Assembly: GCF_006345805.1 (NCBI RefSeq) | Contig: NC_043022.1 | Location: 17,484,001-17,548,000, forward strand | Origin: Octopus sinensis | Lineage: Eukaryota | DNA: 64,000 nucleotides | Reading direction: 5' to 3' | Program-made: the position numbers and the translations under genes | Notes under the pieces: model-generated | The model's input: the letters and a program-made list of their open reading frames with translations, nothing else | Databases searched by the model: none | Told to the model about the DNA's origin: nothing | Shown here: in pieces, positions 12,424 through 59,286 of the stretch | Numbering within the stretch: position 1 is the stretch's first letter | Layout of the letters: each line of letters begins with the position of its first letter

Positions 12424-12478
<55 letters not shown>

Positions 12479-12672: not shown

Positions 12673-12722
<50 letters not shown>

Positions 12723-12753
12723 CATACATACATATATACATACATACATACAT

Positions 12754-12787
<34 letters not shown>

Positions 12788-12826
12788 ATACATACATACA
12801 TACATATATCTATATATATACATACA
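11722..12826. repeat. ~1.1-kb compound (TA)n/(TACA)n/(CA)n microsatellite
   Basis: Directly visible. It generates the spurious Y/I/M/C/V/H ORFs in the track. Confidence 0.97.
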
Positions 12827-38640: not shown

Positions 38641-38710
38641 CTGACGTTTAAGTATACATTGGAATTATATTTCACTGTGGTGTTCATCATTTAATATCTG
38701 TCTCCATGCT

Positions 38711-39650: not shown

Positions 39651-40485
39651 TTGTTTTTGTTGAGAAGTGAAAGTGAAATTAACGTTGCTTGACTGTATTC
39701 GAGTTTATAACATTTTGATAGTACAGCATGGAGAAGATTGGACAGGTTTCGTTCGCTTACATTAGACAATCAAGGGATCTTCCTGGTTTAGTCGTTTATT
39801 TACATCTCTCATACACACACGCATATATACATGCGGTAGGATCGAAGCAGGAATAACATGGTTGCGAAGACAACTTATATCCTTGTCTGTGTGGCCAACA
39901 TGGTCCTATCTATCTTCATTTAAAAAGCCAAGCTGTGCAAAAATTATACATGTGTGCGTGCGTGTGAGAAAGAAGAGACTCCTATAAAACACAAGCTCAA
40001 TACTCAGTCAATGTACCTCTCTGTTTCGAATCACATCACGTAAAAACTATTATGCATAACAAAACAAACGTTTATATAAATTTACACATGGCTGAATAAA
40101 CCGTGTGTGTGTGTATGCACACATATATATATTTGTGCATGTGTATATGTGTATATGTGTATCTACATTTCCTTGACATCACGTTATAGCTGTAAATGAA
40201 GCTCATCATCATACAAGCAGCGTTATTCATTTTCATTCTTCTGTAGGAATCCTGTCTAGCGGCAGGAAATTTTGCACTGCTTAGACACAGGTGATGGTTG
40301 ACAACAGGAATGGTAACTGGCCATAAAAAATCTTCCTCAATTATTTTTGTGTGACCCATACAAACATGGAAAAGTAGATGTTAAAAGATGATGCCAATGA
40401 AAGTATGTCATTATGTATTATTGTGGCTTGCTCACCAATATCATTGATGCACCCTATTGAATACAATTCATCTATCATTATCTAT

Positions 40486-41031
40486 TATAGATGTTTTCGA
40501 TCCAATTTGGATTCTTTGCCATCAAATTTGAATTCTTTGCAATCAAATTTGAATTTTTCAATTGGTGCTCAAGCCTTGAAAAGAAAGAGAGTTAAACTAC
40601 ATCAGCTGTAAGGGAATACATGTCTATCTTATCTAACTTGTCCAGTAGAGCCCACCAATTGATATCTGAAAAGTTCGATGAAATAACTCATGAACATTGC
40701 CATAGCTTCTACCAAAAGATGCTCCATTAGGTCGATCGGTCTGAACAAGGGGAGATAATAAACGAATGATTATGTTTCTATTATCTCCCCTTGTTCAGAC
40801 TGGTCGACCTAATGGAGCATCTTTTGGTAGAAGCTATGGCAGTGTTCATGAGATATTTCATCGAACTTTTCTGATATCAATTGGTGGGCTCTACTGGACA
40901 AGTTAGATAAGATAGACATGTATTGCCTTACAGCTGATGCAGTTTAACTCTCTTTTTTTTAAGGCTTGAGCACCAATTGAAAAATTCAAATTTGATTGCA
41001 AAGAATTCAAACTAGATCAAAAACATCTATA
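40486..41031. mobile_element. Foldback/MITE element: near-perfect palindrome with 250-275-bp arms and an 18-nt loop
   Basis: Left arm 40486-40760, loop 40761-40778, right arm 40779-41031. Termini ta|tagatgtttt...aaaacatcta|ta. Confidence 0.92.
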
Positions 41032-41039
41032 TTATTCTC

Positions 41040-41245
41040 AAGGTGACAGAATTGTTAGCACACCAGGCAAAATGTTTAGCAGCATTTCATTTGTTCTTAT
41101 GTTCTGAGTTCCAGTTCTTCCGAGATATTCTTTACCTTTCATCCTTTCAGATTTGATAAAATAAGTGCTAGTTGTGCACTGGGGTCGATGAAATCAACTT
41201 ATCCCTCCCCAGAAATTGCTGGCCTTGTGCCAAAATTTTAAACTA
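41040..41245 (+). mobile_element. SINE family C
   Basis: gacagaattgttagcacaccaggcaaaatg...ttctgagtt...cctttcatcctttc...ggccttgtgccaaaattt. Confidence 0.85.
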
Positions 41246-41361
41246 TTATCTATTTGGATGCTATTTTAAAATTCCTCTTTTTTTCTCCTTCCTTTTGTTT
41301 TTCAGCTGGTGGCAAGAACTAAGTAAACTAATATGAAAGAAGCATTACCACCTGAGAAACG

Positions 41362-41627
41362 ATGAAGATTAATTTGGTTGTATTTTCACTATTTTATTTA
41401 CATTGTTTATTTTTTCCTTGTTGTCTTCTTGGCTCTTGTCCACCAGACAGTGTACATGGCGAACAGTTATCTTTCATAGATGGAATTTATTCTCTTCCTT
41501 TTAATGAGAGGCTGGAGGAGAGAAAGCAGAATTTGCAAAAATATTCTTTTGAGCACAATGTAAATAGTATTGACCGTCGGAGTGGTCTTTCCCAAGATGA
41601 GTTTAACCAGGTCTATGATGGAAAGTG
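41362..41627 (+). CDS. JmjC-domain 2OG/Fe(II) oxygenase (JMJD6/JMJD4/JMJD8 group), coding exon 1 of 8, containing the signal peptide; full CDS is 376 aa
   Basis: MKINLVVFSLFYLHCLFFPCCLLG hydrophobic leader, then IDRRSGLSQDEFNQVYDGK. Acceptor ttcag before 41306 and donor TG|GTAAGT (phase 2). Confidence 0.9.
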
Positions 41628-41998
41628 GTAAGTAATTGAATCCTGAGAATTCATTAATCAGTATCTTTCTCAAACATAAAATGGTTGCTAAAAAAGGGCA
41701 AAATATTGAGAAGATGGAATCACTTTCATGACAATGGATTGTGAACTGAAGGATTTGAGGGATAAGATGCCGTAACTGATATGACTTTCTCTTGAAGCTT
41801 GTCACCAAACAACTAATTGTTAGAAACACTTGTAACACTGTATTTATACATGTGTGTGTATATACTTTTATTTATTTCGCTAAGTGATACTAATAACCTA
41901 CTTTTAGAACTCAATATACATATTCAACTCTTTGAGGATTCAAACTCAAACTGGATAGTAACAAAATTAAACATTATCAAGCATCTTAATTTGCTGTG

Positions 41999-42250
41999 AT
42001 GGTGCACGGCTTAGTAGTTACGGTGTTGGATTCTTGGTCCTAAGACTGTGGTTTTGATTCCTGGAGCAGGCAATGCATTGTGTTCTTGAGTAAAACAATT
42101 TGTTTCACATTAGTCTAGTTGACTCAGATGGCAAAAACGAGTAATCCTGTGACAGACTCTGGCTTCCCATCCAGTGGGGAATATATATACGAAGGAAATT
42201 GAGAAACTGGCCCTATGAGTCTATATGACTCGAGAAGTATCTTTATCCTA
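41999..42250 (+). mobile_element. SINE family A (intronic)
   Basis: ggtgcacggcttagtagttacgg...ggttttgattcc...tgtgttcttgagtaaaaca. Confidence 0.7.
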
Positions 42251-42780
42251 TCTTTTATCCCTTCTTTGAATTTGCTGCTCTATATTTCATGGCAATTAGC
42301 AATTCTTTCTTTCTTTTAAGAAGATTATCTCTAGAAGCATTGGTAGCATAAAATCAAGAAGAAAGGTACTAGTGACTATGTCTAACATCATTCTTTAAGC
42401 TGTCTTTCTCTGATTCCTTCTCTGTTCACATATTCCAATATGAAACATCAGTTTTTTGTTTTGCAAACACAGCCAACATTTTATGGGAAGAATTATTGCC
42501 ATATAAATTGATGCTGTTACTTCATTTCTTGATATGCATTGGCCTTTTTGTACTATTGGGATATATTTTTGTGATCAAGAGGCATGAAAATTTCACCTAA
42601 ACAGGATTTGACTTCAAATCAGAAGTCCTGGCACTGTTTTTCTTTTCAGCAAAGCCTAATTTCCAATATGCTGTTAAACATAAATAATCCATCTTGTCCT
42701 TGCTTGAAGGAATGTAAGCAAAAACAAAGCTGTTAAACATTCACAGTAACCTTTTCCAATAATTTAACTATATTCCTTGG

Positions 42781-43155
42781 CTCAGGCATGACTATGTGGT
42801 AAGAAGTTTGCTTCCCAACTACATGGTTCCAGGTTCAATCTCACTGCATGGCACCTTGTGCAAGTGTCTTCTAAATTCTGAGGCTGACCAAAGCTTTTTG
42901 AGTGGATTTGGTAAATGGAAACTGAAAGAAGCCTATTGTATATGTGTGTGTTTTTCCCTGCCCCACTCTGCCTGACAACCAGTGTTGGTGTGTTTATGTC
43001 CCCATAATTTATAGATTTGTCAAAAGAGACCAATAGAATAAGTACCTGGTTTTAAAAAAAACTTAAGTAATGGGGTCAATCCATTCAACTAAAATCGTTC
43101 AAGCTGGTGCTTGAGCAGTCCAATGATTGAAACAAATGAAAAATAAAAGATAAGG
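42781..43155 (+). mobile_element. SINE family B (intronic)
   Basis: caggcatgactatgtggtaagaagtttgcttccc...gcaccttgtgcaagtgtcttct...tgattgaaacaa. Confidence 0.85.
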
Positions 43156-44469
43156 ATATAGGGGTTCTACAAGAGCAGAGATTCTTCCATCCTTTTCTTT
43201 CCTGTCTACTGAAGACTGGTTGTGCTGATAATCTTTGCTGACCTTCCTGGATTAATGCAGTTCATCCAATTAATATCGAGTGTGAACTTTTACAGATGAT
43301 TGATCAATGAGAAACCCTGGACAAAAAGAAAGGGTTAGGGTTGCAATTCTGCAAATGAAGGATTGAAAACAGTAATTTGTATAATTAAAGAGCATTTCAT
43401 TAGCTTGTTAGCGTAAATTTTGCATCTTCCAAATAGCAAGAATCTGTGTCTAATTGTTACTCAAGAGAAATGGTGTCCCTCAACTACTTAATACCATGAA
43501 TATAAAGACAAAATGTGTTTCCTAAACTATGAAGAACAGTGTCTTATGCAGTTAGATAGATAAAAGATGAATGTTCTCCTGGGTAAAGTAGCAGTCTATC
43601 TAGGAGTAGTCTTTGATGATTTCTGTCACTATTCCTGACAGTTAAATGAAACGAAGAATGTTTAACTTTATATTATGAAAGATAAGAAGCCCAACATGTC
43701 TCACCTGTTTTATAGAAGACAAGCCAAAGAGGATGCCTCTCCAAAGTAGCAACACAATCACACCCAAATTACACTTTACCCTAGAAAAAGGAAGACAACT
43801 GGATGACATAGGGGTAGATACACTGTACTAGGGGCCAAACTGCCTTGGTTCATAGTTAAGGCTGTCCTTGGACTGCACAGGATAGGCTTTTAATAGCAGG
43901 TGAGATACACTAGGATTTTGTGATAGTCCTATTGTCTATGTCTTGTGATAGTTCTAGTGAAGGCGCATGACCTAGTGGTTAGGGTGTTGCACTCACAATC
44001 ACCAGATCGTAGGTTCAATTCCTAGACCAGGCAGCATGTGTTCTTGATCAAAACACTTCATTTCACACTGCTCTACTGCTATGTAGGAACCTGCATGTCA
44101 AAGAATAGAGTCAATATTTCCTCTGTGTCATAAAAGGCAAGTAAAAGAGGTTGAGGCAGGATTTGCACTCCAACCTCATAAAAACCCCCTCAGCAGCAAT
44201 AGCTACACAAATAGACCCATGGGTCAGAGGGTTGTCACATCAGTGGTGCAGAATTGTAATCCATCAGGAGTAGAGAATCATGGACAAATGGTGGATGCAA
44301 CGATGTGCTGTTACAGTGCATTCTCCCATACAACTACCACTACTACTACTATTGTCTGTCTGAAATTGTAAATCAGCCTCATTTATTACAAGACTTTATC
44401 TAAAATAAAGGATCGCATGATTGACCAGGCAATCAAAATTCTGGCTCACGTTGTTTTAGATGTTGATAG

Positions 44470-44685
44470 ATGCCACCCTGATGGCTAGGTAAGTAGGCCA
44501 ACATTCCCCCTAATCGGAAGGCTTGTCCATCACAGGGTTAGCTATTTACAGCTGAGTGGACTGGAGCAGCATGAAAGGATTTGTTTTGCTTAAGAACATA
44601 ACACACAGCTCAGTTCAGGAATTGAACTTACAATCACTAGATCATGAGTGCAATACCCTAATCACTAGTCCATACATTTTCACAG
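44470..44685 (-). mobile_element. SINE family A (intronic)
   Basis: Homologous to 36910-37116. Confidence 0.75.
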
Positions 44686-44905
44686 AATAAATGAATAAGT
44701 AAGTCAAAATATAATATCTTCTTATTTTTTGTTGTTTTTGATTTCATGACAGGCAGCCTAATAAAATATTGAGTAAATTGAAACAAATATCTAAGGTTTT
44801 GGTCTTGAAATACATAATTGTAGCATTTATTAAGGGTTTTAAAGAAAAGAAGCAGACACTGGGAGATTTCAGTTTCTTCTTAGCAAACATTCGGTTATGT
44901 TGCAG

Positions 44906-45014
44906 GCCTGTCATTCTCACCGACGTCATTACTAAGTGGCCAGCATTCAACTGGACTAAAGAGTTTTTACAAACAAATTATGGACATGCAAAAGTTACAG
45001 TGAAGATATCTAAG
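44906..45014 (+). CDS. JmjC oxygenase, coding exon 2
   Basis: (W)PVILTDVITKWPAFNWTKEFLQTNYGHAKVTVKISK. Acceptor tgcag and donor AAG|GTATGT; the phase joins exon 1. Confidence 0.92.
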
Positions 45015-45754
45015 GTATGTTGTAACATTGTGTCCCCAAAGAGAGGCGATTTGCAAGTGAAAGTTTTCCGAGTATAATAAACCTCCTTTCCAACTTCCAG
45101 TGAAATTCTAACGTACAATTTAGTTGTATCTTCATCATCATCATCATTATTATTGTTATGAAGAGCATTGAAAGGTAGAGTTGGTGTAGCAGTGAGCAAA
45201 ATGCATTGTGATACTTAGTTACATCCCTTTGCATTCTGAGTTCAAAGTTTGTTGAAGTGAACTTTCATTGTTCCAAGGTTGAGAAAATAAGAATCAGGCA
45301 AGTTGAGATTCTTCATTACACGTCTTATACTTTTCAAAAACAAAAAAAAACAAAGGGTAGTGACTTGTAGAAACACCAACTGGTAGAAGGAGTGACTGAT
45401 AGAAACAGTGGGGTATCATACAAAATGTCTTGAATTATTTACATATCTTTATGTTTAAGTTCAAATTTTTCTGATGGTATTAATAAAATGAGAGCCAAAT
45501 TATTGAACTTGTGATGTCATTCCATCAATGTAGGAACGTTGGTTGCCCTCATTCAAATTTTGGATTTGAATTTCTATATATCACTTTTCATTTTGAACTC
45601 AACAAAGACAGGCAAGCTGTTGAAATATCGTTCAACCAATAAAATATCTCTTGCAATCATGTCACACTCTTTGTATTGTCTATTTACCTTTGTGAAGAGT
45701 TACATCAATCCTTTTCAAATATTATCATCATCATCAATAATAATAATAATAATA

Positions 45755-45968
45755 ATCCTTTCTACTATTGGCACAAGGCCTAATATTTTGTGGGAGGGGA
45801 CTAGTTGATTACATTGACCCGTTTTTGCTGGTACTTAATCTATTGACCCCAAAAGGATGAAAGGCAAAGTCGACCTTGACAGAATTTGAACTCAGAACCA
45901 TAGTGACAGGCAAAATACTGCTAAGCATATCGCCTGGCACGCTAACAATCCTGCCAGCTTGCTGCCTT
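45755..45968 (-). mobile_element. SINE family C (intronic)
   Basis: Reverse complement reads aaggcagcaagctggcaggattgttagc...gtcgactttgcctttcatcctttt. Confidence 0.85.
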
Positions 45969-46462
45969 AAATAATAATCATCATTATCATCATTTAATGT
46001 CCACTTTCCATGAGGACTGGCAAGCCAGGAGGCTGCACCAGGCTCCAATCTGATCTGATTATTTTTTTGTGTTACAAAAAAAAATGAAGTGTGACATAAA
46101 TTCCACCAAAGTATCAAGGAAAGAATTCATGTTTAGTTCAGGTTCCTTGGAATTTAACAGAAAAGATTGTAAACTATTTCAGATGTAGAACTTATTCTCA
46201 GTAACTAAGTAAATGGGGGAAACATACAGTTTTAGAATTTAACCCAAACAGCTGTTAAAATATATTCAGAGAAATTGAATTCAGCATCTGTGGTCTGGAA
46301 GCATAAAATCCAATTCCTTTTTAGCTATTTGGCATCTGCAGAACGACTAAACACAATGGCTGATTGTAAACTGATAATTATTTTTAATAACCTTTTTATA
46401 TCTCTACTCTCATGGCCTCACATTTTTGTTTCTTTCCTTTTTTTTTTTTTTGTCTGTTTCAG

Positions 46463-46606
46463 GGTTCTGAGTCATTTGGATCTGTAGAGCAGCTTCAGCA
46501 CATGATACCCCTTCTCAGCTCCAGTGAACTGAAACAATGGTTCTATATTGAAGATGAGCTCTTCCTTAACTTGCATCCAACTCTTTTGAAAGATATTGGC
46601 AGCACA
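46463..46606 (+). CDS. JmjC oxygenase, coding exon 3
   Basis: GSESFGSVEQLQHMIPLLSSSELKQWFYIEDELFLNLHPTLLKDIGST. Long poly-T tract plus cag acceptor, GTAAGT donor, 144 nt. Confidence 0.9.
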
Positions 46607-46874
46607 GTAAGTACATGTGGTTGTTTAGGGAATTGATTTGGTGTGTGAACTATTAACCCATTTGCTTAGATATCAGATCATTTTTGTGGCGTTTCAGTCT
46701 TTGCCAGTTGTCTATAAGAATTATTGCGTTGAGTCAAAGAGTTTTGCAATATTTTGGTAACTTATTTGCTTTATTTGTCGAGTTCCAGCAAAAGCAGTGA
46801 AGCATTCAAAGTAGAGGCCATTGTGTTGCCCCCTTTTCTGCCAGTTCTTTAATCCCATGCTGATACCAGTTCTT

Positions 46875-47485
46875 GTCGTTTGAGGGGAAGAACTCCTTCA
46901 CTGAAACATCCACCTCTTCTCAGTTGATGAAGTGTCTTGAGGCAGGAAGTGAGCCAGGAATCAGAACAAGTTATAATCTGAAGGAGATATTTTCCTGCAA
47001 TCCTAACATGTATAAGCAGTGGTTAAGCAAGAGCCATATTCAGGAACTTGTCTCCAAACATGGAAGTCTCAGACACAAGGGGATGCTCTGTATCTGGTGG
47101 AATTATGAGGAGTTCATTCTGGATGGTCAAACCATCAATATCAACCTGTAATCTGAACAGCTGGAGTGGATGTATGCCACTGTGCAGCAACAATACCCAG
47201 CATTGGTTAGGGTTAGAAAATGAACTCTTCTGCAGCAAGACAATGCAAGACCTCATACCATTTGAATGACCCAGAATATACTCCAGGAACTTGAGGGAAT
47301 TGAACTGATGCCACACCCAGCATATTGTCTGGATCTAGCTCCTTTGGATTATTGGATTGTTCCACTCCATGTCTCACTTCTTGCACTTGTGATACTTCAT
47401 CAACCGAGAAGACGTGGAAACTGCAGTGAATGAGTTCTTCTTCTCAAAGGACAAAAACTGGTATCAACATGAGATCGAACTATCT
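46875..47485 (+). mobile_element. Decayed mariner transposase fragment (intronic)
   Basis: KGMLCIWWNYE, LLQQDNARPHT, ELMPHPAYCLDLAPLDY (variant of the YSPDLAPxD motif). Confidence 0.85.
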
Positions 47486-47921
47486 TATTGTTCTGTGTCT
47501 TCTCATTTCCTTTTCCTGTTTCTTTTCTCTTTTCTACTTTTGTCATCATCAATGCCACTCTTTTGGTCATTGTCATAGTTGTACTTCAATTCTCCGCACA
47601 ACCTTCCCTCATTTTCTCCTCTTCTAGTCTCTTGAAAATGGAAATTATTACAGCCAACTGTTCTATTTGCTGAGATTCTTGGATAAAAGAAATACAATTT
47701 GATTGTAAAAAATAGACATAGTGCTTGGTTTGTTACCAAGGATATGTCCTGATCGATCAACTTTAATTCCTGTACACTTTCTGAAGCAAGCTTATACTTC
47801 TTGTTCGGTTGTTCATTTGAGGAAACCCCATTCTAGCCGTTCAAACTGCTTGTTAATCTACTTGACATTTTCTTCTTTCCTTTCACTGAAATAATGCAAA
47901 AGGCTTTTTTGTAATTTTCAG

Positions 47922-48083
47922 CCACTGCTGACCGAAGACTTCTTTTCTCTGTTTCCTGAGGAAATTCGACCATGGAATTCCATGCTACTTTGGGGTGGGG
48001 CCCACTCCAGGTCTCCACTACATATAGACCCCTACAATTGGACTGGAACAAATGCAGTATTGAAAGGGACCAAAAAATGGAAA
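47922..48083 (+). CDS. JmjC oxygenase, coding exon 4 (HxD motif); absent from the ORF track
   Basis: PLLTEDFFSLFPEEIRPWNSMLLWGGAHSRSPLHIDPYNWTGTNAVLKGTKKWK. Acceptor ttttcag, donor GTAAGT, 162 nt. Confidence 0.95.
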
Positions 48084-48377
48084 GTAAGTCTCTCTTTTTT
48101 TTAAACTTTCAGTCATCATCATCATCTTTTGCATCAACATCAGCAGTTTTCCCATGTCTCCATCTGCAGTCTATAGAACTTATTTTAAAGAAATTACCTT
48201 TCTCTAATTGATAAGTTGATGAAGTTGCCATTTTAAGAAAACAGCTTATCTCTTTTTTTCTCCCCCAATTTGTTGTTTTTTATGGTGAATTTCTCTGTGG
48301 CAAAAATGTTTATGGTGAAATTTCCTATAACCCAATGGCTGTGCCCTGATGTTAATTATGGTTTAATTCTATTTCAG

Positions 48378-48463
48378 TTGTTTCCTCCTGGTCAGGATGA
48401 TTTACTGTATGTCATTCCTGAACAGAGGTGTGGCTTCCCTTTGGAGTGTCGGAAATATAACAG
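48378..48463 (+). CDS. JmjC oxygenase, coding exon 5 (predicted GC donor)
   Basis: LFPPGQDDLLYVIPEQRCGFPLECRKYN(S). Acceptor atttcag. The donor AG|GCAAGA gives the phase 2 needed by exon 6; an alternative GT donor lies after 48427. Confidence 0.8.
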
Positions 48464-48679
48464 GCAAGAACCACCATTGTCCTTGTTCTTCTCATCACTG
48501 TTATTTTTATTTTGACTTTAGTCAAAACTGAATGTTACTGGTACCTATTTCATCAACCACCACAGTTAAGGAAGACAAAGTTAGTTAACAAGCAGAAGGA
48601 TTTGAAATCAGAATAAGCAAAACTGAAACTAATTACTATAATTACTAATAAACACTCCTGCATTCCTTTGATCTGACTG

Positions 48680-49432
48680 CCATTTCTCTCTCTCTCTCTG
48701 TCTCCTTCCCCACTATTCCACTCCACACATTGACTCCCTATTTTTCATGTCCAGTTTTATTATACAGCTGCTCTCCGCCCTTCCTATATTGCCACTTATT
48801 TCCCCCTCCCCTCTGATCTGCCACTCCTCTATATTTTAGTCCACTCTCCCTATTGATATTTACCATTGATTCCCCCAACCCCCATCTTCTTCCTTGTTCA
48901 TCATTCACTGCAATCACCTCTACCTAATCATCTCTTATCCTTTCTGATTCTCTTTCCATATTCTCTCCATACACTCTCCTCCTCCTTGTATCTTGACAGT
49001 CTCTCCTCACGCCTCCTCATCACCACCCTCTCTATCTCTCTTTTCAGATACTCTCACACTCACTTCTTTATATGGTGCAGCATAGCCATTGTATCTCCTC
49101 TACAGCCAAACAGCTCAGCTTGTCCCTCTACCATACTTTAACCTCTCTCCATAAATTGACTGCCATTCCTTTTAACCCTAACCCCACTCACACAACTTAA
49201 TCAAGGGGTATTTTTGTTTATCTTGCAAGTCACTTGGTGACTCTGCTAGCACTGGTGCCATGTGAAAAGCACCAAATACATTCTGTAAATTGGTTGGCAT
49301 TAGGAAGTGCATGCTGGCTGTAGAAACTGTACCAAATCAGACACTGGAGCTCAGCACTGCTCTCTGGCTTGTTGGATCCCAATGAAACATCCAACCTATG
49401 CCAGCATGAAAGAGCGACATTAAAATGATGAT
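48680..49432 (+). mobile_element. RTE LINE CT-rich 3'UTR and tail
   Basis: Pyrimidine-rich tract, then tcttgcaagtcacttggtgac...ccaacctatgccagcatg...atgatga. Confidence 0.75.
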
Positions 49433-49801
49433 AGTGGCGGCGGCGATGGCAACATTGTAGCAGAAGCAGCAGCAGCAGCCGACTAAAGACGATGCAGGGT
49501 TTTCTTTTGAATTTTTTTCATTCTGAGTTGAAATCCCTGCCCGGCCAATTCTATATTTCAGCCATTCAGAGTTGATTAATAAGAACCAGTTTCATATAAG
49601 AGTTGCTTCACTTGACTATTCTCTTCCTCTACTAAATTAGCCGTTTAAGAAATCAGTTTTATTTGGTAGAAATAATAGAGTCCAAGAGTAGAGTACCTTA
49701 AAGTACTGCTTGTTCTGAGTTGATTAAAGTAAATGACCAGCATGTATGATTAACTGTATGTCAATAGGATTGATGGTTGTTTAACAGATCTTTATTCAGC
49801 T

Positions 49802-50385
49802 TGAAGGCACGTGGCTTAGTGGTCAGAGTCTTCGGCTCACAGCTATAAGGTTGTGAGTTTGATTCCTGCTGGTACTTTTTGTCCTTGAACAAGATGCTTC
49901 ATTTCATGTTGCCTCAGTCCACTCAGCCGGCAGAAATGAGTTCTACCTGTATTTCAAAGGACTTGCCTTGTCACACTCTTTGTCATGCTGAATCTCCCTG
50001 AGTACATGTCTGTGGAGTGCTCAGCCACTTGCACATTAATTCCATGAGTGGGCTGTTCTGTTGATTGGATTAACTGGAACCCTCATCATCATAACCGATG
50101 GAGTGCCCATCATTTGAATTGAAGTGAGGTGGGAGATGAGTTGTCAGTAGGACTAGAATGATAGATGAAATACCTTGCAATATTTAGTTTCATCAAGGGT
50201 ATCAAGGTGGCAAGCTGAGAGAATTGTTATGGTGCCAGGCAAATGCTTAGCAATACTTCATCCATCTTTACCTCCTGAGTTCATCTTTTCAGGGTCGATA
50301 AAATAAGTAACAGTTGTGTACTGAGATTGATGTAATCACTTACCCCTCCCCAACATTGCTGGCCTTGTGGATAATTCGAAAGCAA
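49802..50385 (+). mobile_element. SINE family A (49802-50108) and family C (50203-50385)
   Basis: gaaggcacgtggcttagtggtcagag...gagtttgattcc, and aaggtggcaagctgagagaattgtt. Confidence 0.8.
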
Positions 50386-50675
50386 TATTTAGTTTCATCC
50401 CTCTACTTTAAAATCTAGTTTTATGTAGGGACAAAAAAAAAGGGTGAGGGGGCAATATTTATAACATGAGTAATTAGAACCATACAATCAGAAATAATTT
50501 ACTGCTAAACTGTGTCTGTTTGGTTTTTGTTTGGTGCTATTTCCCTCCACTTCATCTTTGCATATTATTTATTCTTGGTCAGGGGATGATCTGACTCACT
50601 CAAGGGCCAAATCACTTGGTCAAGAGCTGCAAATGAGTATCATTTGCAGCATCCAGTTGATTAACCAACATTCTG

Positions 50676-51355
50676 TCATCATCATCATCATTTAATGTCC
50701 ATTGTCCATGCTGGGTATGGGTTGGATGGTTTGACCAGAGCTTGCCAGCTCTGGTCAGCTGCACCAGATTCCAGTCTGATTTGGCATGGTTTGCTATGGT
50801 TCGACACCCTTCCTCACACCAACCACACAGCAGGGTGTGTACTGGATGCTCTCTACATGGCACCACCACAGGGGGCTTTATGTAGCACTGCCACAGGTGC
50901 TTTGCACCACTACAGGGACTGGTCTTAACACTTCTGCTGTGGAGCATGGGTTTTCTTGAGTATAGTAAGGTGCCACGCATCTTGGTCCTTTGTCATCTCA
51001 CCTGAAAGGTTCAGCATCCTGAGGTCGTTCTTCAGTACTTCATCCTATGTCTTCCTGGGTGTTCCACTTTCACGTGTTCCATCTACTATAAGAGGTCGGC
51101 ACTTCTTTATAGAGCTATCAGCATCCATCCACATCACACCAAACCAACGCAGTCTTCTCTCTTGCACACAGCAACTAATTCCTCTTAGGCCTAACTTCTC
51201 TCTCTCTCTAAACAATAGCACCCTGATGAAGAACATGTAACCTTACATAACACATCCAGTGGAGCATACTAGCCTCATTCCTTTCTAATCTTCACATGTC
51301 CTCTGCTTTCAGGGCCCATGTCTCACTACCATGTGGAATTGCTGTCCATATACAT
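50676..51355 (-). mobile_element. 5'-truncated RTE LINE
   Basis: REKLGLRGISCCVQERRLRWFGV...GTPRKT, with a (CAT)n tail at 50676. Confidence 0.85.
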
Positions 51356-51377
51356 ATATGGCTCTTAAGATCATTTT

Positions 51378-51600
51378 AGGCACAAGCATGGCTGTATTAG
51401 TAAGACGCTAGCTTCCCAACCACGTGGTTCCAGGTTCAGTCCCACTGCATGATACCATGGGCAAGTCTTTTCAACTATAACCTTGTGAGTGGATTTGGTA
51501 GACAAATTGACATAAACCCGCTGTGTGTGTGTGTGTTTGTCCTCCATCACCACTTGACAGCTGGCATTGGTGTGTTTATGTCCCTATAACTTAGTGGTAT
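51378..51600 (+). mobile_element. SINE family B
   Basis: aggcacaagcatggctgtattagtaagacg...ggttcagtcccactgc. Confidence 0.8.
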
Positions 51601-51738
51601 GGTATTTTCTCTTTCCTTCTTACTTTCTCTTAATTCATATCCATTTCTTTCAACTGTCTTCTTTTCATTTCTCTAATTCTTCTCTCTCTCTATACCCTTC
51701 TAATATAAAACACTTCTATTCATCTCTGTAATATAGCG

Positions 51739-51963
51739 CAGTGGCTCTCAACCAGTGGTTCTCAACCTTATGACCATTAGAGGTCCATTTGACCATTAGA
51801 GAGTCCTTGGTTATGCTTCTAAAATACACAATTTTTTAAAATACAATTCCTAATAATATTCAATTATAAAAACATAATAGGAGTTCTTTTATGTTGAATG
51901 GATATTGGGATCCTAAAATAGGAATCAAAAGTGGGGCCAAAGGGAAAGAAAAGAGTACCACTG
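51739..51963. mobile_element. hAT-type MITE
   Basis: Termini cagtggctctcaacc/cagtggttctcaacc and gagtaccactg. Imperfect 8-bp TSD atatagcg / atatagta. Confidence 0.7.
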
Positions 51964-52069
51964 ATATAGTACCACTTTCTCCTAAGGCACCAGACCAAAC
52001 TGATATAGAATATTGACAAATAATTTTTCTTTTTTTCTTTTTTATGCTCTGTATTTTTTTTTATTCCAG

Positions 52070-52190
52070 CAAAGTTGATGCTTTTACTCCTAACCTTTTG
52101 AATTATCCAATGTTCCAAATGGCTAAATCCATTGATTTTGAGCAAAAATCAGGTGAACTTCTAATAATTCCGACTGGCTGGTATCATCAG
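52070..52190 (+). CDS. JmjC oxygenase, coding exon 6 (distal His)
   Basis: (S)KVDAFTPNLLNYPMFQMAKSIDFEQKSGELLIIPTGWYHQ contains the QxxGExxxxPxGWxH motif. Acceptor ttccag, donor CAG|GTGTGT. Confidence 0.95.
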
Positions 52191-53446
52191 GTGTGTATAG
52201 TAGACTTTTTCATAAATCTTAGTATTTTGTGATATTTTTATCCCTTTAGCATTCAAATGTTGCTAACCTGACCACCTTAAAAAAAAAAAACTATTTATTC
52301 CAAGTAACCATATCCAGCTGCCTTTGAATCTATCTTTCCATCACAGATAAAGTCATTTATTTCTTAGTTTCCCTGTTTCATTATTTTGATATGACATCAA
52401 CATTTCAATGTCAAAGGCTGACACATTTTAGAGGGATTCTGTAATGGAAGTAGAAATGAGTTTCTATAAGCCAAGTCCATGTTCTTGTTGTTATACTTTA
52501 TTTTTATATCAAATATTGTCCTTGAGAAAGTTATGTACACCATACAATCTTAATCCTTTTAAACGAGCTGTCTACTGTCAGATGTATCCATGAATGGGTG
52601 ATCAATAGTACAGCTCTTCAGACAATTTTTCCAACTTAATCTTAGTTTGTAGAATGGACACACTATATTCCTGCATGTTGTAAGAGGTAGCCAAGGGAGT
52701 TGGTGACAGGAAAAGTATTCAGTCAGAAAACACTGCCTTAAAAAGTCTCATACAACCCTTGCCAGCATAGGCATGCAGACATGAAAATGATGATGATAAT
52801 AACTAGCACTGGTGCGGGTGCCACGTAAAAGTATTTGTGCGGGAGCCACATAAAAAGCTCACATGCTAGTAGCATGTAAAAGCACCCAATACGCTTTGTA
52901 AAGTGGTCGGTGTTAGGGAGAGCATCTAGCTGTAGAAACCACGCCAAAACAATGGAATTTATTTGATACAGCTCCTGGACTTGCCACTTCCTGTCCAACC
53001 ATCCAACACATTCCAGTTTGGAAGACGACATTAAATGATAATTATGATGATTATTGTATTTTGATAGGTTTATTCTCTGATTATCATTAGGTGTCTTATT
53101 TCTGGGTGTGCAAATAGTACCAAACTGAATTAAAGCAGGAACCATGTTTCTAAACTAAGAGGAGTAGCATTGTTATCCACAACTCCACTGATATCTGTAA
53201 CTGAGTTGGACAGAAATGTTATTTGGTACACATCTAAGAATGCGATATATGAGGATGGCCAAACTAGGAATGCAGCATATGATGATGGCCCAAACTCAAA
53301 GCTATCAAAACAAATGTAGATGCAAATATCAAAATATTCTCATCTGTAATGATGAGGCTAATGATTTGAAATATTCCATTCTACTCTAGGCACAAGGCCT
53401 AAAATTTTGGGTATATTGAGCTTTGTACATTTGTATGCCAATATCT

Positions 53447-54077
53447 CTTTGATGGCATGCACTGCTCTCTCACTCAATCACAATAATAATGATGATAATA
53501 GTAATGATAATAATAATAATCTTGCCCTGATGTAGTCCCAGACATTGGCTCTCATGGCTTCTGATCTTAACTGATTGGAAGTGTTATTGTGTACATTGTT
53601 TTGTTTTGGTATAAAAGATGGGTTACAGCAAATATTCTGCTCAATACCACAGATTTGCTTGTCACTTGTTTGACCATAACCAATTGACCATGTCCGTAGG
53701 TGGCTGACGATATGTGCATTTCTGATCATGAACAGATGTAGTGGGGGAGCATCATAGTCATGTGTTGAGAGGGATTCTTTGGCGCTTGGATAATTCACCA
53801 TTGGAAACATGGGTGTTTCGTTCAAACTCCTTAAACAATCCTTATTCAAGGACCATTTGAGTGGTATGGGCTACTCAACCTGAAGAAAATTTTAAATGGG
53901 CCCCACCTGTGAGGTCATGCGCTGTTTACCTTGATATGAGATCACCATGTCATGCACATATGGTTGTGATGCATGTGCCTGGTCTATTCTCATCAGACGG
54001 GTAGTCATGATGGCTATACTGGGCTTTGTATATTTTACCCCAGTGTCACTTTGATAGCATGCACTGCTCTCTCATTC

Positions 54078-54123
<46 letters not shown>

Positions 54124-54125
54124 GT
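53447..54125 (+). mobile_element. Two tandem 3' ends of an element terminating in (AAT)n (Dong/R4-like target preference)
   Basis: ctttgatggcatgcactgctctctcactcaat at 53447 and ctttgatagcatgcactgctctctcattcaat at 54050, each followed by (AAT)n. Confidence 0.6.
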
Positions 54126-54287
54126 ACTAATCTGAAATATCGTATTCTTATTTCAGACATTTTGACATTTAATCATGATTGCTAAGTGTTCCAGAGTTGC
54201 AACTGGAAATATGGCTCTGTTTGAAGTGTCTGCTGTTTCTTCTCTCCATTGTATTATTCTAATATACTTCATTTTCATGGATTTCAG

Positions 54288-54437
54288 GCTTATAATTCGG
54301 AAGAAACTCTTGCTATTTCTAGTCAAATAATGAACTCCATGAACTATTTGGCTATTATGGAAGAAATTATTAAAGTTGGTAATTTACAGAAACATACCCT
54401 ACCAGACAATTTTGGAAGACTTTCAATAAAAGAACAG
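54288..54437 (+). CDS. JmjC oxygenase, coding exon 7
   Basis: AYNSEETLAISSQIMNSMNYLAIMEEIIKVGNLQKHTLPDNFGRLSIKEQ. Acceptor tttcag, donor CAG|GTTTGT, 150 nt. Confidence 0.92.
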
Positions 54438-55249
54438 GTTTGTTATCATCTGCATTTTATATTTTTTAAGTGAAGTCAAGAGGGCAGTAAAAGTTATAGA
54501 AATGATTGTGTGCTGAGCTAAATGCATTTTTGCTAAGAATGGGTCTTCAGATTTCACCAGTTTTGTATTTCTTCTGTCCAGAGTCAATAAAGAAACTACC
54601 AACTATATATACTGGCACCAATTTATATTTCTTGCCTAAAAAATTGTACCTTTTTCTTTTTATATCTTTTATCTATTACTTTTTTCTGTTGTTAGACTGT
54701 GGCCATACTGAGGCACACGGGGGGACTGAACCTGCAAATATGTGATGGGGAAGCAAACTTCTTACCACACAATCACACCTGATTATATAATTCCAACATT
54801 TCATTCTTTCCTTTTGATTTAAGCAATCAATGCCGAGGGAATTGAAGAAAGTGAAGACTCATAATTCTAATTAACAGATGTGCTGACACTGTTGATTAGA
54901 TCTGATTTGACTAATGATTGACATCAAAGATTGATCTCTCTATTTGTTCAGTCATTATGTTTCCCAAATTAGAAATAAAAAGATCAAACAGACAAAGTAA
55001 ACAATTAATCCATAAATTATTAGTTTCAATCTGTTTCAGAGATTTTGTCACCTCTTCATTTTATATTGATACAATTAGAATTAGTCCCATGTCATCTACA
55101 AATATCAATGTAATTGACCGGTGTTCTGTCCAAAGAGAGACTTATTCTTCATATACTTCACAGAATAGGGAAAGTTCTCATTTGTAAGTAGTATCAATAT
55201 AAAAATTGACATATGGTAAAATGTCTTGTAGTGCAGAATTGAGCTCCTG

Positions 55250-56571
55250 TTCTGAGGGAGATGGCCCTGCTCAATGTGTAGAAAAGGTGCAGGTAGAAAC
55301 TCCATAAGATGCACCCAGTATAAGCTTTGGACACATAAAAGGTGTAACAACATCAAAGGAAGGTTAACAGAGAAACAAACTTTTGTATGTGAAAGATGCA
55401 CAGGTACAATAAACACTGAAATGTGCAGAAAATAGACTCCATCAATTGCCAGGGGTACAAGCTAAAGGGAGTAGATAGCATCCATTATCTAGGTTAGTAG
55501 TGGAGGTGGATGCTCTGAGAGCGTAGCTGTGAGAATAAGATTAGGCTGAGTAAAATTCAGAGAGCTCCTACCCCTGCTGGCAACAAAGAGCCTCTCTCTC
55601 AGAGTGAAAGGCAGATTGTTTGATGCCTGTGTGTGAACAGCCACACTACATGGCACTGAAACATGGGCTGTGACAGCTGAGGACATGCGTAAGGTTTGAA
55701 GGAAATGAAGCCAATATGCTTCACTGGATGTGCAATGTCAGTGTGCATGTTTGACAGAGTATAAGTATCTTGAGAGAAAAGTCAGGCATAAGAGGCATCA
55801 GATGTGGTGTGCAAGAGAGACAACTGCACTGGTAAGGTCATGTGATACATATGGATGAGGACAGCTGTGTAAAGAAGTGCTGATGTCTAACTGTGGAGGG
55901 AACCTGTGGTAGAGGTAGACCCAGTAAGACATAGGACGAAATAATGAAGCATGATCTTTGAACTTTGAGCTTCACAGAGGCAATGACTAGTGACTGAGAT
56001 CTATGGCATGATGCTGTACTTGAGAAGACCCGTCAAGCCAAGTGCACTCATGCTGGTGGCATGTAAGGGACATCTTTCAAGTGTCGGACCTCACAGAGGC
56101 AAAGTGGCTGAGTTCCTTTTGAGTATTAGGCCTCATGGAGGCAAAATTGTTGACATCCTCTTGAGTGTTGGGCCTCACAGAAGCAAGGTGACTGAGTTCC
56201 TTTCGAGTGTTGGGCCTCACGGAGGCAATGACCAAGACCTTTGGCATTATGTCGTGCTTGAGAAGAAGAAGACCCATGAAGCCAAGCAAAATCACAGTTG
56301 TGTCAGGTACCAGTGTCATGCAACTAGGCACCTGTGTTGGTGGCACATAAACGCACCATGATGTCATGCAAATGCCACCCATGCCAGTGGAACATAAAAG
56401 CACCCATTACACTCTCAGAGTGGTTGGTTTTAGGAAGGGCATCCAGCCATAGAAAACCATACCAAATCAGACTGGATTCTGGTGCAGCCTTCCAGCCTTG
56501 CCAGCCCAGTCAAGCCGCCCAACCGATGTGTGTTACAACGGATGTTAAATTATGATGATGATGATGATGAT
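55250..56571 (+). mobile_element. 5'-truncated RTE LINE with the PHD-like region, a 42-bp tandem array (~56075-56230) and a (GAT)n tail
   Basis: GRWPCSMCRKGAGRNSIRC, GTETWAVTAEDMRK, RGRGRPSKT. The tail ends tgatgatgatgatga. Confidence 0.9.
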
Positions 56572-57279
56572 AAGCTCCACCTGGCTGATTTGGTCTCAAT
56601 ATAACACAGAGAGAGAGACAGACAGACAGACTCTTCAGTATTGCCTCTGTTACCAAATGGGTTGAGGGATTCATTAGTATTATTCAGTCCTTGTTAAGTG
56701 TAATATTTCTATTTATATATAAATATACCCATGCCAGTATGGAAGGCAAATGTTAAACAATGATGGTGATGAGGACGACGATGGGATTAAGTTTTATCTC
56801 AAACTTTCGATTTTATCAAGGCTTTTTCAATGTTCTTATTCATTTCAATACAGTCTCTTCACCTGAAGGTTTTCAGGAATATATCCATTTCATATAAGTG
56901 GCTATTGAACCAGGTTGCACTAAATGTAATTAGGCCAATTTGAGCATATTACTCTTTTGTGCCCTTAAAAACACAGTGAAGGAATTGCACTTCTTTCTGA
57001 TGAGTGTGCACTTTTCAGAAGTAATTACCGATCATTAATCTACTATAAGGCTTATAGGAAGCCTTTGTGATAGCTTATATCCAGCTAGTGTAAATGGGCT
57101 GTAGAGGCAACCATTTCCGTCATGAAACAGTGCTATATGAGTTACAAGATACAAACTGTGAAACTTTTATCCTGAAATTGTTCTATTGTCTTCCATTAAA
57201 TTTGATCCTGGCTTTATATAACACCAGTTGGAACTGTTATAACAACTGAACAAGAGCAAGCAACAAAACAGGCACAACA

Positions 57280-57720
57280 TTTCTAAACTACATCTGACCA
57301 GATAAAGCTGCTGATCTTTATCCAACAGAATATGCTCTTCACATCAAGATTATGCCCTTCATTTGAGGTCAAGAATGTCATCAAATCCATGAAAACTAGT
57401 AAAGCACTGGGCATTGACTTCCTCTGTGTAGAAATGATCAAAAACAGTCCTTGTTCCTGCGATACCAGAGTCACTTGATCTTTATGGAATCATCAGGGAG
57501 AGTGACAACCATTGCAAGTAACCTAAGGGACTAATTGTGAAACTTTCCCCAGAAAGGAAACTGATAAAGGAGCTGCAATAATTAGCTTGGTATGATGATC
57601 CTCTCTGTCGTTAGCAAGAATTCTTCTCCAAAAGATTGACTAAAAGCTGAGAGAAGAGCAGACAGAATTCAGGAAAGGTAGTGGGGGGGGGCATACAACG
57701 AGATTTTTGCATTGAAGAAC
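57280..57720 (+). mobile_element. Decayed LINE RT fragment; ~100 bp of it (57580-57681) is duplicated at 58221-58341
   Basis: EVKNVIKSMKTSKALGIDFLCVEMIK, LREEQTEFRKG. Direct repeat attagcttggtat...ttcaggaaaggtag. Confidence 0.65.
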
Positions 57721-58507
57721 AGTGGAATGTACTGTTTAATATCGAATACACAGGAAACACTGCAGAGTATTATAGTGAACATTATTGTATTTTGATAGTG
57801 TAAGAGATAATCTCTTGCCAAATTGAGTCTTTTATCTAGGTTTGGTTCTTGGCAAAACTATTTCATTGAGTCACTATCATCCACTCCCATTCCATCTCCT
57901 GAAGCCAAGAGGGCTAAGAACCAGTTAATAGTCAACAAGTTGAAACTTGAATGCTATGTAGGATACAAAGAGATATTTATTCTTTATCTTTTACTTGCTT
58001 CAGTCATTAGACGGCAGCAATACTGGGACACCACCTTCAAGAATTTCTAATCTAATCAATTGCCCCCCCCCCCCACTACTTTTTTTTATTCATATATTTT
58101 TCTCTTTATAACTGATGTAGATGATATGAATTAGAAATAAAATTGAAGGGTACTAGTTACATATCTGAACCCTTAAAATCCTAATGAAAATTGTGTAAAT
58201 CAAAAGCCCAGAACTGAAATGATTCTTTTACAGAACTGAGATTAGCTTGGTATTATGTTCCTCTTTGTCCTTAGCAAGAATTATTCTCCAAAAGATTGAC
58301 TAAAAGCTGAGAGAAGAACAAACAGGATTCAGGAAAGGTAGAGGACGCATTAATGAGATTGTATAGGGAAGGGATTAGGGTTTCCACCCTTACCTTAAAC
58401 AGTTCCTTACTTTCTTCAAACTCTGTGGGAACAATTATACTAGTATACTTCATGTGTTATTATGCATTTCAGGACTGGCTGAAATATACAGGAATTTAAG
58501 AATTAAA

Positions 58508-58892
58508 TACAGGCATTGTTGTGTGGTAAAAAACTTGTTCCCCAACCACATGGTTCTGGGTTCAATCTCACTTCATGGCACCTTGGACAAGTGTCTTATA
58601 CTATATCCTCAGACTGACCAAAGCCTTGTGAGTGGATTTAGTACATAGAAACTGAAAGAAGCCTGTCATATACATGTGTGTGTGTGTTTGTCCCCCACTA
58701 CCGCTTGAAAAGTGGTGTTGGTATGTTTATGTCCTTGTAACTTAGCAGTTCAGCAAAAGAGACTGATAGACTAAATACCAAGTTTAAAAACAAAAAATAA
58801 GTACTAGGGTTGATTCGTTCAACTAAAAGTCTTCAAGACACTGCCCCAGCTTGGGCACAATCTAATGACTGAAACAAGTAAGAGATAAAATT
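58508..58892 (+). mobile_element. SINE family B, near full length
   Basis: caggcattgttgtgtggtaaaaaac...ggttcaatctc...accttggacaagtgtctt...ctaatgactgaaacaagtaagagata. Confidence 0.85.
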
Positions 58893-59009
58893 AAATATGC
58901 TACACATGAGATACAGAGAGGGGAACATAAAAAATGTAATTAATATTCCACTCTATAATTAACAATCCACTCTACTAATTTGTTTCTTTTTTTTATCTTC
59001 CTTTTAAAG

Positions 59010-59102
59010 GTTCGGTCTCTCATCAAATCATTACCTTACCAAATTTTACTACAAGGCCGTCGAGTTGTTGACACTTACCAAAGAACAAGAGAAGAACTCT
59101 AG
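59010..59102 (+). CDS. JmjC oxygenase, terminal coding exon ending in REEL-stop; absent from the ORF track
   Basis: Long pyrimidine tract plus aag acceptor, phase 0. Reads VRSLIKSLPYQILLQGRRVVDTYQRTREEL*. Confidence 0.8.
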   Translation, partial: VRSLIKSLPYQILLQGRRVVDTYQRTREEL

Positions 59103-59280
59103 CTTGGAAGAAATTCTTTTCATGTTATCAATTCTGAAAATTATTAATTGTTCATAAACGTTTTTCTTCAAGACACCACCATATTTTATTCACATTGAGA
59201 AGGCGTCTAAAAATGAAATGCCATTTAATATAATCGGAGACATTTTAGTGTTTTATGAAGTCAGTATATCATCATGTTCT

Positions 59281-59286
59281 AATAAA
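59281..59286 (+). terminator. Candidate polyadenylation signal of the JmjC gene
   Basis: First AATAAA after the stop codon, just before repeats resume at ~59335. Confidence 0.5.

Follow-up and report, generated by a model that had tools for sequence, protein, structure and literature searches.

Enzymes of the JmjC group are generally treated as nuclear or cytosolic, and a predicted octopus protein that joins a hydrophobic N-terminal leader to a JmjC domain and a C-terminal REEL raises the question of where such an enzyme works and on what substrate. The gene lies on the forward strand of a 64,000-nt stretch of Octopus sinensis DNA (the window, to which all positions refer). The reading preferred here, that of a luminal JmjC oxygenase of its own family, which is retained by its REEL end and hydroxylates secretory proteins, is moderately probable as a whole, and its parts differ in strength.

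Gene structure and catalytic domain

Eight exons join in phase into 1131 nt, encoding 376 amino acids and a stop codon. Exon 1, the first coding exon (41306–41627; 5′ UTR 41306–41361, ATG at 41362, and coding part 41362–41627 in the spliced translation), encodes residues 1–88, exon 2 (44906–45014) encodes residues 89–125, where the extended Cupin_8/JmjC fold begins and the NWT at 104 lies, and exon 3 (46463–46606) encodes residues 126–173 with the invariant W151-x-Y153-x-x-D156-E157. Exon 4 (47922–48083; residues 174–227) carries S204, the iron ligands H207 (codon 48021–48023) and D209 (48027–48029), the invariant PYNWT, N217, and K224 (48072–48074). Exon 5 (48378–48463; residues 228–255) contains C245-G-F-P-L-x-C251 and is followed by a GC donor, exon 6 (52070–52190; residues 256–296) supplies the third iron ligand H295 (52185–52187), and exon 7 (54288–54437; residues 297–346) holds S307 and N299 of the HxxxN motif; exon 7 is also where the family-specific C-terminal helices begin. 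The coding part of exon 8 (59010–59102; residues 347–376) contains the REEL (59088–59099) and the TAG stop, and the 3′ UTR (59103–59286), into which a contig reaches as far as 59265, includes an AATAAA at 59281–59286. Six introns are GT-AG and intron 5 (48464–52069) is GC-AG, a donor that the initial annotation does not mention.

Splicing was judged from exon–exon joints in contigs of public runs, which are presumed to derive from RNA, although none is listed as such. Introns 1, 3, 4, 5, 6, and 7 each have a joint that matches the predicted length exactly in all four runs (four studies), that of intron 5 measuring 3606 nt, and intron 2, which is not among the joints listed, is crossed by a contig (X6, record 11) that extends from 41306 to 59265 and whose pieces abut there. 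Exon 1 is covered without a break from 41306 to 41626 in runs X4 and X6 and from 41241 to 41628 in X12. The eight-exon model of the initial annotation and all seven of its junctions are borne out by these spliced contigs, and the leader, S204-x2-H207-I-D209, T216-N217-A, G222-x-K224-x-W226, G292-W-Y-H295, the NWT sequences at 104 and 212, and the terminal REEL are all found in the translation. The frame of exon 4 is open for 69 amino acids and that of exon 8 for fewer than 60. The product is identical, letter for letter, to protein P0248, an NCBI entry for Octopus named 'F-box protein At1g78280', and the genome holds a single copy of the gene (one match each in a protein search and a pattern search).

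Profile searches with the spliced protein return Pfam Cupin_8 (84.3 bits) and JmjC (43.2 bits) above cut-off, and a Pfam scan at E 0.01 finds no F-box. The predicted structure (pLDDT 84, pTM 0.82) is matched best by JMJD5 (Z 23.8, rmsd 2.6, 229 residues aligned) and also by JMJD6 (Z 21.8, rmsd 3.8, 250 aligned). JMJD6 is the top PDB sequence match (E 8.5e-19), as expected for the JMJD6-like sequence type first assigned, with HxD, K, and H in register and H207, D209, and H295 aligned with its His187, Asp189, and His273. Among 93 near-full-length members of the family, the iron ligands are kept in 92 (H207), 93 (D209), and 92 (H295), and the residues that we take to be the counterparts of the JMJD6 2OG residues are kept in 93 (K224), 92 (S204), 91 (S307), and 81 (N217), so that the claim of an intact JmjC active site holds. 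Further conservation is seen at N299 (92/93), D156 (92/93), and E157 (93/93) and at the invariant aromatics W151, Y153, W197, Y211, W213, F247, and Y254. A candidate disulfide between C245 and C251 is not strictly conserved, C251 being present in 90/93 members and C245 in 57/93. The two NWT sequons initially listed in support are weak evidence, N104 occurring in 48/93 members, and N212 lies three residues past the iron-binding Asp, with Glu in many wider relatives. Judged from its sequence, the octopus protein is very probably a catalytically active Fe(II)/2OG oxygenase of the JmjC fold.

Proposed reaction and substrate

In the preferred reading, the leader would import the octopus protein into the ER lumen, with cleavage near G24/S25, REEL would hold it there through KDEL receptors, and the enzyme would hydroxylate a side chain, most likely of Lys or Arg, on proteins in the secretory pathway. 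Elsewhere among animals, an uncleaved type II anchor would in most cases tether this domain; in cephalopods and, separately, in some protist lineages, a leader and a KDEL-like tail would take its place. By analogy, a protein substrate is slightly favoured, and a basic residue is a more tentative suggestion, made because the nearest characterised enzymes (JMJD6, JMJD4, and JMJD5) act on basic residues. JMJD6 hydroxylates Lys at C-5 and JMJD4 at C-4 (PMC4543633), and JMJD5 is named an arginyl hydroxylase in the PDB match; the specificity of JmjC enzymes cannot be predicted from sequence (PMC2453528). Other 2OG oxygenases, namely P4H, P3H, PLOD, and ASPH, reside in the ER and act on secretory proteins (PMC4543633), and human P3H3, an ER 2OG oxygenase, itself ends in REEL (PMC8263409). 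The ER collagen hydroxylases and ASPH differ from the octopus protein in lying outside the JmjC subfamily, and the analogy with them is functional only. As a membrane protein, ASPH has type II topology.

It is also conceivable, though unlikely, that a luminal 2OG oxygenase of this kind acts on a glycan, a glycolipid, or another membrane lipid and not on a protein side chain. Glycosyltransferase 61, a family of luminal enzymes, is fused to the distant relative P0151 (four cluster members), a fusion seen in one lineage, with a second non-cupin domain in 0/40 other distant or long proteins scanned. Such a fusion supports a luminal location in either reading and would suit a glycan substrate, but its transferase could just as well add a sugar to a hydroxylated amino acid. 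Similarly, most members are likely membrane-anchored like the glycosylation enzymes of the Golgi and ER, yet the anchor is dispensed with in cephalopods, and while many invariant aromatics could bind sugar, the closest characterised JmjC-only enzymes have protein substrates.

Targeting of the catalytic domain

Targeting was judged from hydropathy and charge. Residues 1–24 of the octopus protein (41362–41433) form a hydrophobic leader, likely a signal peptide, with a 17-residue hydropathy of 2.08 at residue 6, and the proposed cleavage near G24 or S25 is inferred from (−3,−1) candidates. A hydrophobic 17-residue segment (mean ≥1.7) is present in 76 of the 83 members with an N-terminal region versus 5 of 43 outgroup proteins, which supports the secretory-pathway location that the initial annotation had called probable. 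The usual design in the family is a basic tail with one hydrophobic segment and without xxEL, likely a type II anchor. The N-tails are net positive in 63/67 (mean +5.5) and the stems negative (mean −2.5), matching expectation for N-in/C-out anchors, and within 15-residue flanks the N-terminal side is the more positive in 49 of 76 anchors (11 ties, 16 opposite). Sequon enrichment proved uninformative as a topology test, since sequons are more numerous than in shuffled sequences both in the tail (50 vs 34) and in the stem (54 vs 27) and so do not show the orientation of the anchor.

The expectation that orthologues keep both a leader and an xxEL end is true only of cephalopods, with 0/67 late-segment members ending in xx[ED]L. 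REEL or RDDL ends are found in P0002–P0004, P0250, and P0251 as well as in the octopus, and xx[ED]L ends occur in 6/93 members versus 1.3 expected from composition. They close 6 of 20 early-leader proteins (the other 14 lack xxEL) versus 1 of 79 late-segment proteins, with four changes on the tree, and the combination of leader and xxEL reappears in distant protist relatives. On independent pairs, the link between leader and xxEL is not significant (8 pairs, median p 1) and never opposite, in a test from which 28/127 rows, three of them with xxEL ends, were dropped. Both designs, the leader with xxEL and the anchor, point to a luminal catalytic domain, and a luminal location of the octopus protein is probable on these sequence features.

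A cytosolic catalytic domain, resulting from a reversed anchor or a leader-less isoform and leaving REEL incidental, is improbable. It would agree with database model P0001, in which a 124-nt GT-AG stretch of exon 1 (41323–41446) is spliced out and the leader lost; the first codons of this model would come from a candidate upstream exon end (39636–39643), the only place upstream of 41300 where the required codon pattern is matched. However, the leader is retained in contigs of X4, X6, and X12, unlike in P0001, and in one of them splicing runs from the leader exon through to the last exon; the 124-nt intron is not among the contig joints listed, and the 376-residue form stands under several NCBI accessions. 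The acceptor at 41305/41306 opens the first coding exon and implies at least one 5′ exon upstream of 40300. Two ATGs precede the main ATG, which would also fit a leader-less product, and a 10-codon upstream ORF read from the sequence (41333–41365) has a stop that overlaps the main ATG (ATGA). The absence of xxEL from most animal members and the lack of an obligatory disulfide would likewise be in keeping with the cytosol, but positive N-tails favour a luminal C-terminus and separate lineages repeatedly combine xxEL ends with leaders.

Family relationships and significance

The octopus gene belongs to a discrete, ancient family, distinct from JMJD4, JMJD6, JMJD8, and the secreted JMJD5-like proteins. 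Its animal members come from groups as far apart as placozoans, corals, and amphioxus, and none of the matches bears the name of a vertebrate, arthropod, or nematode. The initial annotation had suggested an invertebrate subfamily distinct from JMJD8; the distinctness stands, and the restriction to invertebrates is contradicted by dinoflagellate and other protist-like relatives. A quick tree of 67 rows was built, and a careful tree of 35 rows was used for AU tests, with partial rows for this genome's JMJD4, JMJD6, and secreted JMJD5-like proteins. Core family support is 100/99, and FIH-type rows fall on a branch of their own (100/99). The AU test rejects joining with JMJD6 (p 0.0003), with JMJD4 (p 0.025, the row being partial and long-branched), and with secreted JMJD5-like proteins (p 0.039, rows likewise partial and long-branched), and it rejects nesting of the cephalopod pair with JMJD8 (p 0.0004). 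The family therefore separates from JMJD4, JMJD6, and JMJD8 in the phylogeny, and a sister relation to JMJD8 remains compatible (p 0.11). Orthology with JMJD8, which would have lowered the novelty of the gene, is also contradicted by a separate JMJD8 gene in the genome (L036, HFH motif), beside separate JMJD6 (on C24) and JMJD4 genes and a secreted JMJD5-like gene with a leader and GHLKKFG. None of 21 pattern matches in viral contigs was confirmed as a viral relative; the top feature match in the Atlas is a mostly Nucleocytoviricota cluster. A lead to a further member is Perna pvir_s00373g141, which matches At1g78280 over 141–373 (33%), a span different from that over which the Mytilus member P0080 matches plant look-alikes (92–353, 28%).

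The family shares with JMJD6 the HIDP motif, the mid-strand Asn, the Lys, HxxxN, an Arg before strand 1, and the JmjC-only architecture, but identity is ∼25–27%, and the family forms a separate clade with a leader or anchor, an invariant PYNWT loop, and C-terminal helices of its own. The features of Table 1 of Iyer et al. (2010) are kept (R189 in 78/93, N217 in 81/93, and N299 in 92/93 members), and the family thus fits the wider histone-demethylase/JMJD6 clade. JMJD6 is mainly nuclear (PMC4543633). JMJD8 is a JmjC-only protein of the ER lumen whose N-terminal signal is reportedly kept as an anchor (PMC5684140), and the octopus protein resembles it in architecture and, judged by hydropathy, has a candidate N-terminal signal sequence. 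JMJD8 has HxH in contrast to HxD in the family (His at that column in 0/93), and cephalopod JMJD8 is 22% identical over 120 residues (E 0.67) and, unlike the octopus protein, has no xxEL end. The strand 8 motif of JMJD4, N[HR]NWhN, occurs in 0/93 members.

Luminal JmjC proteins as such are already known, and JMJD8, initially given as the main secretory exception, is not the only one, a secreted JMJD5-like family of animals, likewise secretory JmjC enzymes and represented in octopus, having been described by Iyer et al. (2010). This family belongs to the FIH/JMJD5 clade, carries GHxxxhG and disulfide cysteines, was lost in vertebrates, arthropods, and nematodes, and is predicted to hydroxylate cell-surface proteins (PMC2938197); GHxxxhG occurs in the first 130 residues of 0/93 members of the octopus family. 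The database name of the octopus protein comes from F-box-JmjC proteins (At1g78280 type; Dictyostelium JcdH/JcdI), which carry an F-box that the octopus protein lacks. Unnamed look-alikes of the At1g78280 type are ∼31% identical over the domain, and metazoa reportedly lack the plant and protist F-box-JmjC groups (PMC9485057). An annelid jmjd6l clade, distinct from jmjd6 and represented by a single gene in each of Owenia, Capitella, and Dimorphilus, is listed among histone demethylases in a preprint whose text mentions no signal peptide or transmembrane segment (PMC12153100). The octopus family also has one match in each of these annelids (P0069, P0048, and P0034), and jmjd6l, compared by description, may belong to it or could be JMJD4 or JMJD8, neither of which the preprint names. 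A description of the family's targeting was not found in the openly accessible main texts covered, and the supplements of PMC2938197 and PMC12153100 may list family members. A reading of the gene as plain JMJD8, or as a duplicated JMJD6 with nuclear demethylase or hydroxylase activity, is very improbable and largely refuted, for although automatic database names include JMJD6-like, jmjd6l is listed with histone demethylases, JMJD6 is the best PDB sequence match, and a JMJD8 sister relation is compatible with the AU test, both placements are rejected by AU tests, the genome has its own JMJD8, JMJD6, and JMJD4, identity to JMJD8 is low, and almost all members of the family have a leader or anchor.

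In surveys of invertebrate chromatin, JMJD6-like genes are placed among the histone demethylases, and the family assignment corrects misleading names such as 'F-box' and 'JMJD6'. Being soluble, the octopus form is the most convenient member for expression and assay, and the family offers a tangible candidate, one that can be expressed, for hydroxylations of secreted invertebrate proteins to which the part of the literature covered assigns no enzyme. A more speculative and rather unlikely extension is that an ancient eukaryotic family of secretory JmjC hydroxylases, overlooked through its loss from vertebrates, flies, and nematodes and through its 'F-box' or 'JMJD6' names, makes orphan hydroxy-Arg or hydroxy-Lys marks on secreted invertebrate proteins, 4-hydroxyarginine in mussel adhesive proteins being an example, coupled in some lineages to glycosylation of the new hydroxyl. 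If the preferred reading is true, this single-copy and strongly conserved family would join JMJD8 and the secreted JMJD5-like proteins as a third JmjC lineage of the lumen, and secreted molecules of corals, molluscs, annelids, echinoderms, and amphioxus would bear a modification that has gone unrecognised.

Structure and annotation of the octopus gene

The motifs claimed in the initial annotation of the octopus JmjC gene were all recovered at their positions on the forward strand by six-frame translation of the window, and splice-site reading with joining by coordinates confirmed that eight coding exons (41362-41627, 44906-45014, 46463-46606, 47922-48083, 48378-48463, 52070-52190, 54288-54437, and 59010-59102) splice in phase into a protein of 376 aa ending in REEL. 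Introns 1, 3, 4, 5, 6, and 7 appeared as joints of the predicted length in 4/4 public sequencing runs from four studies, whose RNA nature is a guess, and intron 2 was spanned by a single contig extending from 41306 to 59265. Intron 5 (48464-52069), with its 3606-nt joint in 4/4 runs, is of the GC-AG type. The predicted product is identical to the stored protein P0248, named "F-box protein At1g78280" or hypothetical in NCBI Octopus entries; Pfam matched Cupin_8 and JmjC in the spliced protein and detected no F-box. A database model (P0001) places a 124-nt intron within exon 1 that takes out the leader, but the leader is retained in contigs of runs X4, X6, and X12, and the alternative joint of P0001 was absent among the joints listed. 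The gene, single copy in the octopus genome by protein and pattern searches, is real and already annotated.

A 10-codon upstream open reading frame (41333-41365) has a stop that overlaps the main ATG, and a second upstream ATG would open a 12-codon frame (39636-41338) if the candidate exon at 39636 is used without the intron internal to exon 1; one or the other may modulate how the leader form is translated. Elsewhere in the window, a broken retroelement ORF (8641-9762, + strand) scores RVT_1 and a PHD-like finger, three others on the reverse strand (4112-4432, 7183-7596, and 37639-38664) have no Pfam match and are presumably LINE or mariner remnants, and a TA/CA microsatellite of ∼1.3 kb (11500-12870) carries long spurious open frames.

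The catalytic core and its separation from related JmjC families

The exon 4 query gave 73 relatives among 79 candidates and a profile search, in which scores fell sharply past the family, recovered 112 among 5450; a library search at 50% identity brought in distant members. In the 93 near-full-length members (profile score of at least 440), the iron-ligand positions H207 (92/93), D209 (93/93), and H295 (92/93) are kept, as are K224 (93/93), S204 (92/93), and N299 (92/93), and next to no variation is seen in the loop D-P-Y-N-W-T or the pair D156/E157. Such conservation is what strong selection on a working enzyme would leave, and from it we infer activity. The NWT sequons listed in the initial annotation add little: N104 occurs in 48/93 members and N212 adjoins an iron ligand and is replaced by Glu in many of the wider relatives. 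The P0248 AlphaFold model (pLDDT 84, pTM 0.82; residues 11-43 low) has JMJD5 as its top structural match (Z 23.8, rmsd 2.6, 229 aligned) and JMJD6 as a further best match (Z 21.8, rmsd 3.8, 250 aligned). By sequence, the solved protein most similar to P0004, a close homologue, is JMJD6 (E 8.5e-19), with HxD, Lys, and the distal His in register; the JMJD6 ligands are His187, Asp189, and His273 (PMC5352680).

The core family forms one branch with support of 100/99 in a tree of 35 rows, some of whose outgroup rows are partial and long-branched, and larger trees give the same separation. A sister position of the entire family to JMJD8 was not rejected (AU p 0.11), whereas grouping of the core family with secreted JMJD5-like rows (AU p 0.039), JMJD4 (AU p 0.025), or JMJD6 (AU p 0.0003) was rejected, as was nesting of the cephalopod pair with JMJD8 (AU p 0.0004). 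The octopus protein is not the JMJD8 orthologue, in line with the initial annotation, which had proposed a subfamily possibly distinct from JMJD8; a separate JMJD8 gene with an HFH motif, located on C6 by motif and confirmed by matches named JMJD8 from Argonauta and Sepia, is present in the genome. The octopus protein shares 22% of residues with cephalopod JMJD8 across 120 aa (E 0.67), and the octopus has its own JMJD6 gene on C24 and JMJD4 gene on C22. The secreted JMJD5-like animal family, reported as lost in vertebrates, arthropods, and nematodes, carries GHxxxhG (Iyer et al., 2010, PMC2938197), whereas this motif occurs in 0/93 members here.

Two other octopus loci, L048 (C9, about 17030500-17031000, + strand; leader and GHLKKFG) and L051-L052 (C3, − strand), fit the secreted JMJD5-like family. 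A JMJD5-like match without introns and with stops on its flanks lies on C9076 (L003, 87683-88024, − strand), and an intact-looking JMJD5 is on C17. On C12600, two near-identical JmjC gene copies (L004/L010 and L005/L009), which we take to be HSPBAP1-like, stand ∼24 kb apart, reflecting duplication or an assembly artefact, and a similar gene is on C3. Proteins P0220 and P0242 form a separate, unnamed JmjC group outside the family with leader-like N-termini, P0220 ending in QAEL.

Two probable secretory designs and their distribution

Targeting was counted in the 83/93 members, and 43/66 outgroup proteins, that begin with Met and have 30 or more residues ahead of the domain. A 17-residue segment of hydrophobicity at least 1.7 occurs in 76/83 members vs 5/43 outgroup proteins, and in 67 of the 76 it sits behind a tail. 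These N-tails are net positive in 63/67 (mean +5.5) and the stems negative (mean −2.5), charges fitting type II anchors that would place the domain in the lumen; the immediate flanks agree with this orientation in only 49/76, and sequons are enriched on either side of the anchor. The expectation that orthologues keep both leader and xxEL holds for cephalopods, which have a leader plus REEL or RDDL, but not for members with a tail-preceded segment, where 0/67 have xx[ED]L ends. In the wider clade, xx[ED]L ends occur in 6/20 early-leader vs 1/79 late-segment proteins, with 28/127 rows dropped (three with xx[ED]L ends) and the lone late-segment case being an Argonauta protein of uncertain start; this distribution requires four changes on the tree, and the independent-pairs test was not significant. 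REEL also ends human P3H3 (PMC8263409, table), and JMJD8 is a luminal precedent with its signal retained (PMC5684140); a JmjC protein in the lumen is in itself no novelty.

The non-cephalopod members P0047, P0043, P0078, P0091, and P0094 end in HEEF, LKEF, KEYF, KQEL, or KSEL, which may represent additional retention-like tails. An anchored distant relative of 952 aa (P0151, four cluster members) is fused to Glycosyltransferase 61, possibly an enzyme that hydroxylates and then glycosylates; no extra non-cupin domain was found in 40 other distant or long proteins scanned.

Source names include Trichoplax, corals, Nematostella, all main mollusc groups, annelids, nemerteans, Lingula, Priapulus, echinoderms, hemichordates, and amphioxus, with dinoflagellates among the wider relatives. 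No vertebrate, tunicate, arthropod, or nematode names occurred among the matches, and because many matches are unnamed, loss of the family in these groups is likely rather than shown.

Proposed chemistry, substrates, and standing of the family

The leader would direct import of the octopus protein into the ER, most likely being cut near G24/S25. Fe(II) would be held by H207/D209/H295 and 2OG by K224 with S204/N217/S307, and O2-dependent ferryl chemistry would hydroxylate a luminal substrate; REEL would return the enzyme from the Golgi, a role that the anchor would serve in other animals. By analogy, the favoured substrate would be a Lys or Arg side chain of secreted proteins, because lysine is the residue hydroxylated by JMJD6 and JMJD4 (PMC4543633) and JMJD5 is named as an arginyl hydroxylase, and because an invariant acidic pair occupies the place of the JMJD6 YIFDS strand. 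The chief alternative is that the substrate is a glycan or a lipid, and specificity is described as not readable from sequence (PMC2453528).

Beside the favoured Lys or Arg side chain stands a lead from mussels, whose adhesive proteins contain many 4-hydroxyarginines (PMC4938201). A green-mussel gene with At1g78280 as its best Swiss-Prot match is foot-specific, at 28 TPM in foot vs 0-0.03 in six other tissues (PMC7971044). Because animals are reported to lack the F-box-JmjC groups (PMC9485057), the present family is a reasonable candidate for the identity of this gene, the alignment span of which is unlike that of Mytilus members.

A single-copy annelid "jmjd6l" clade, named among histone demethylases (PMC12153100), may be the same family, and no description of the family's leader, anchor, or retention signal was found in searches of open full texts. 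The octopus gene belongs to a separate, ancient, and apparently uncharacterised lineage that has kept its chemistry intact and has two alternative, probably secretory designs.
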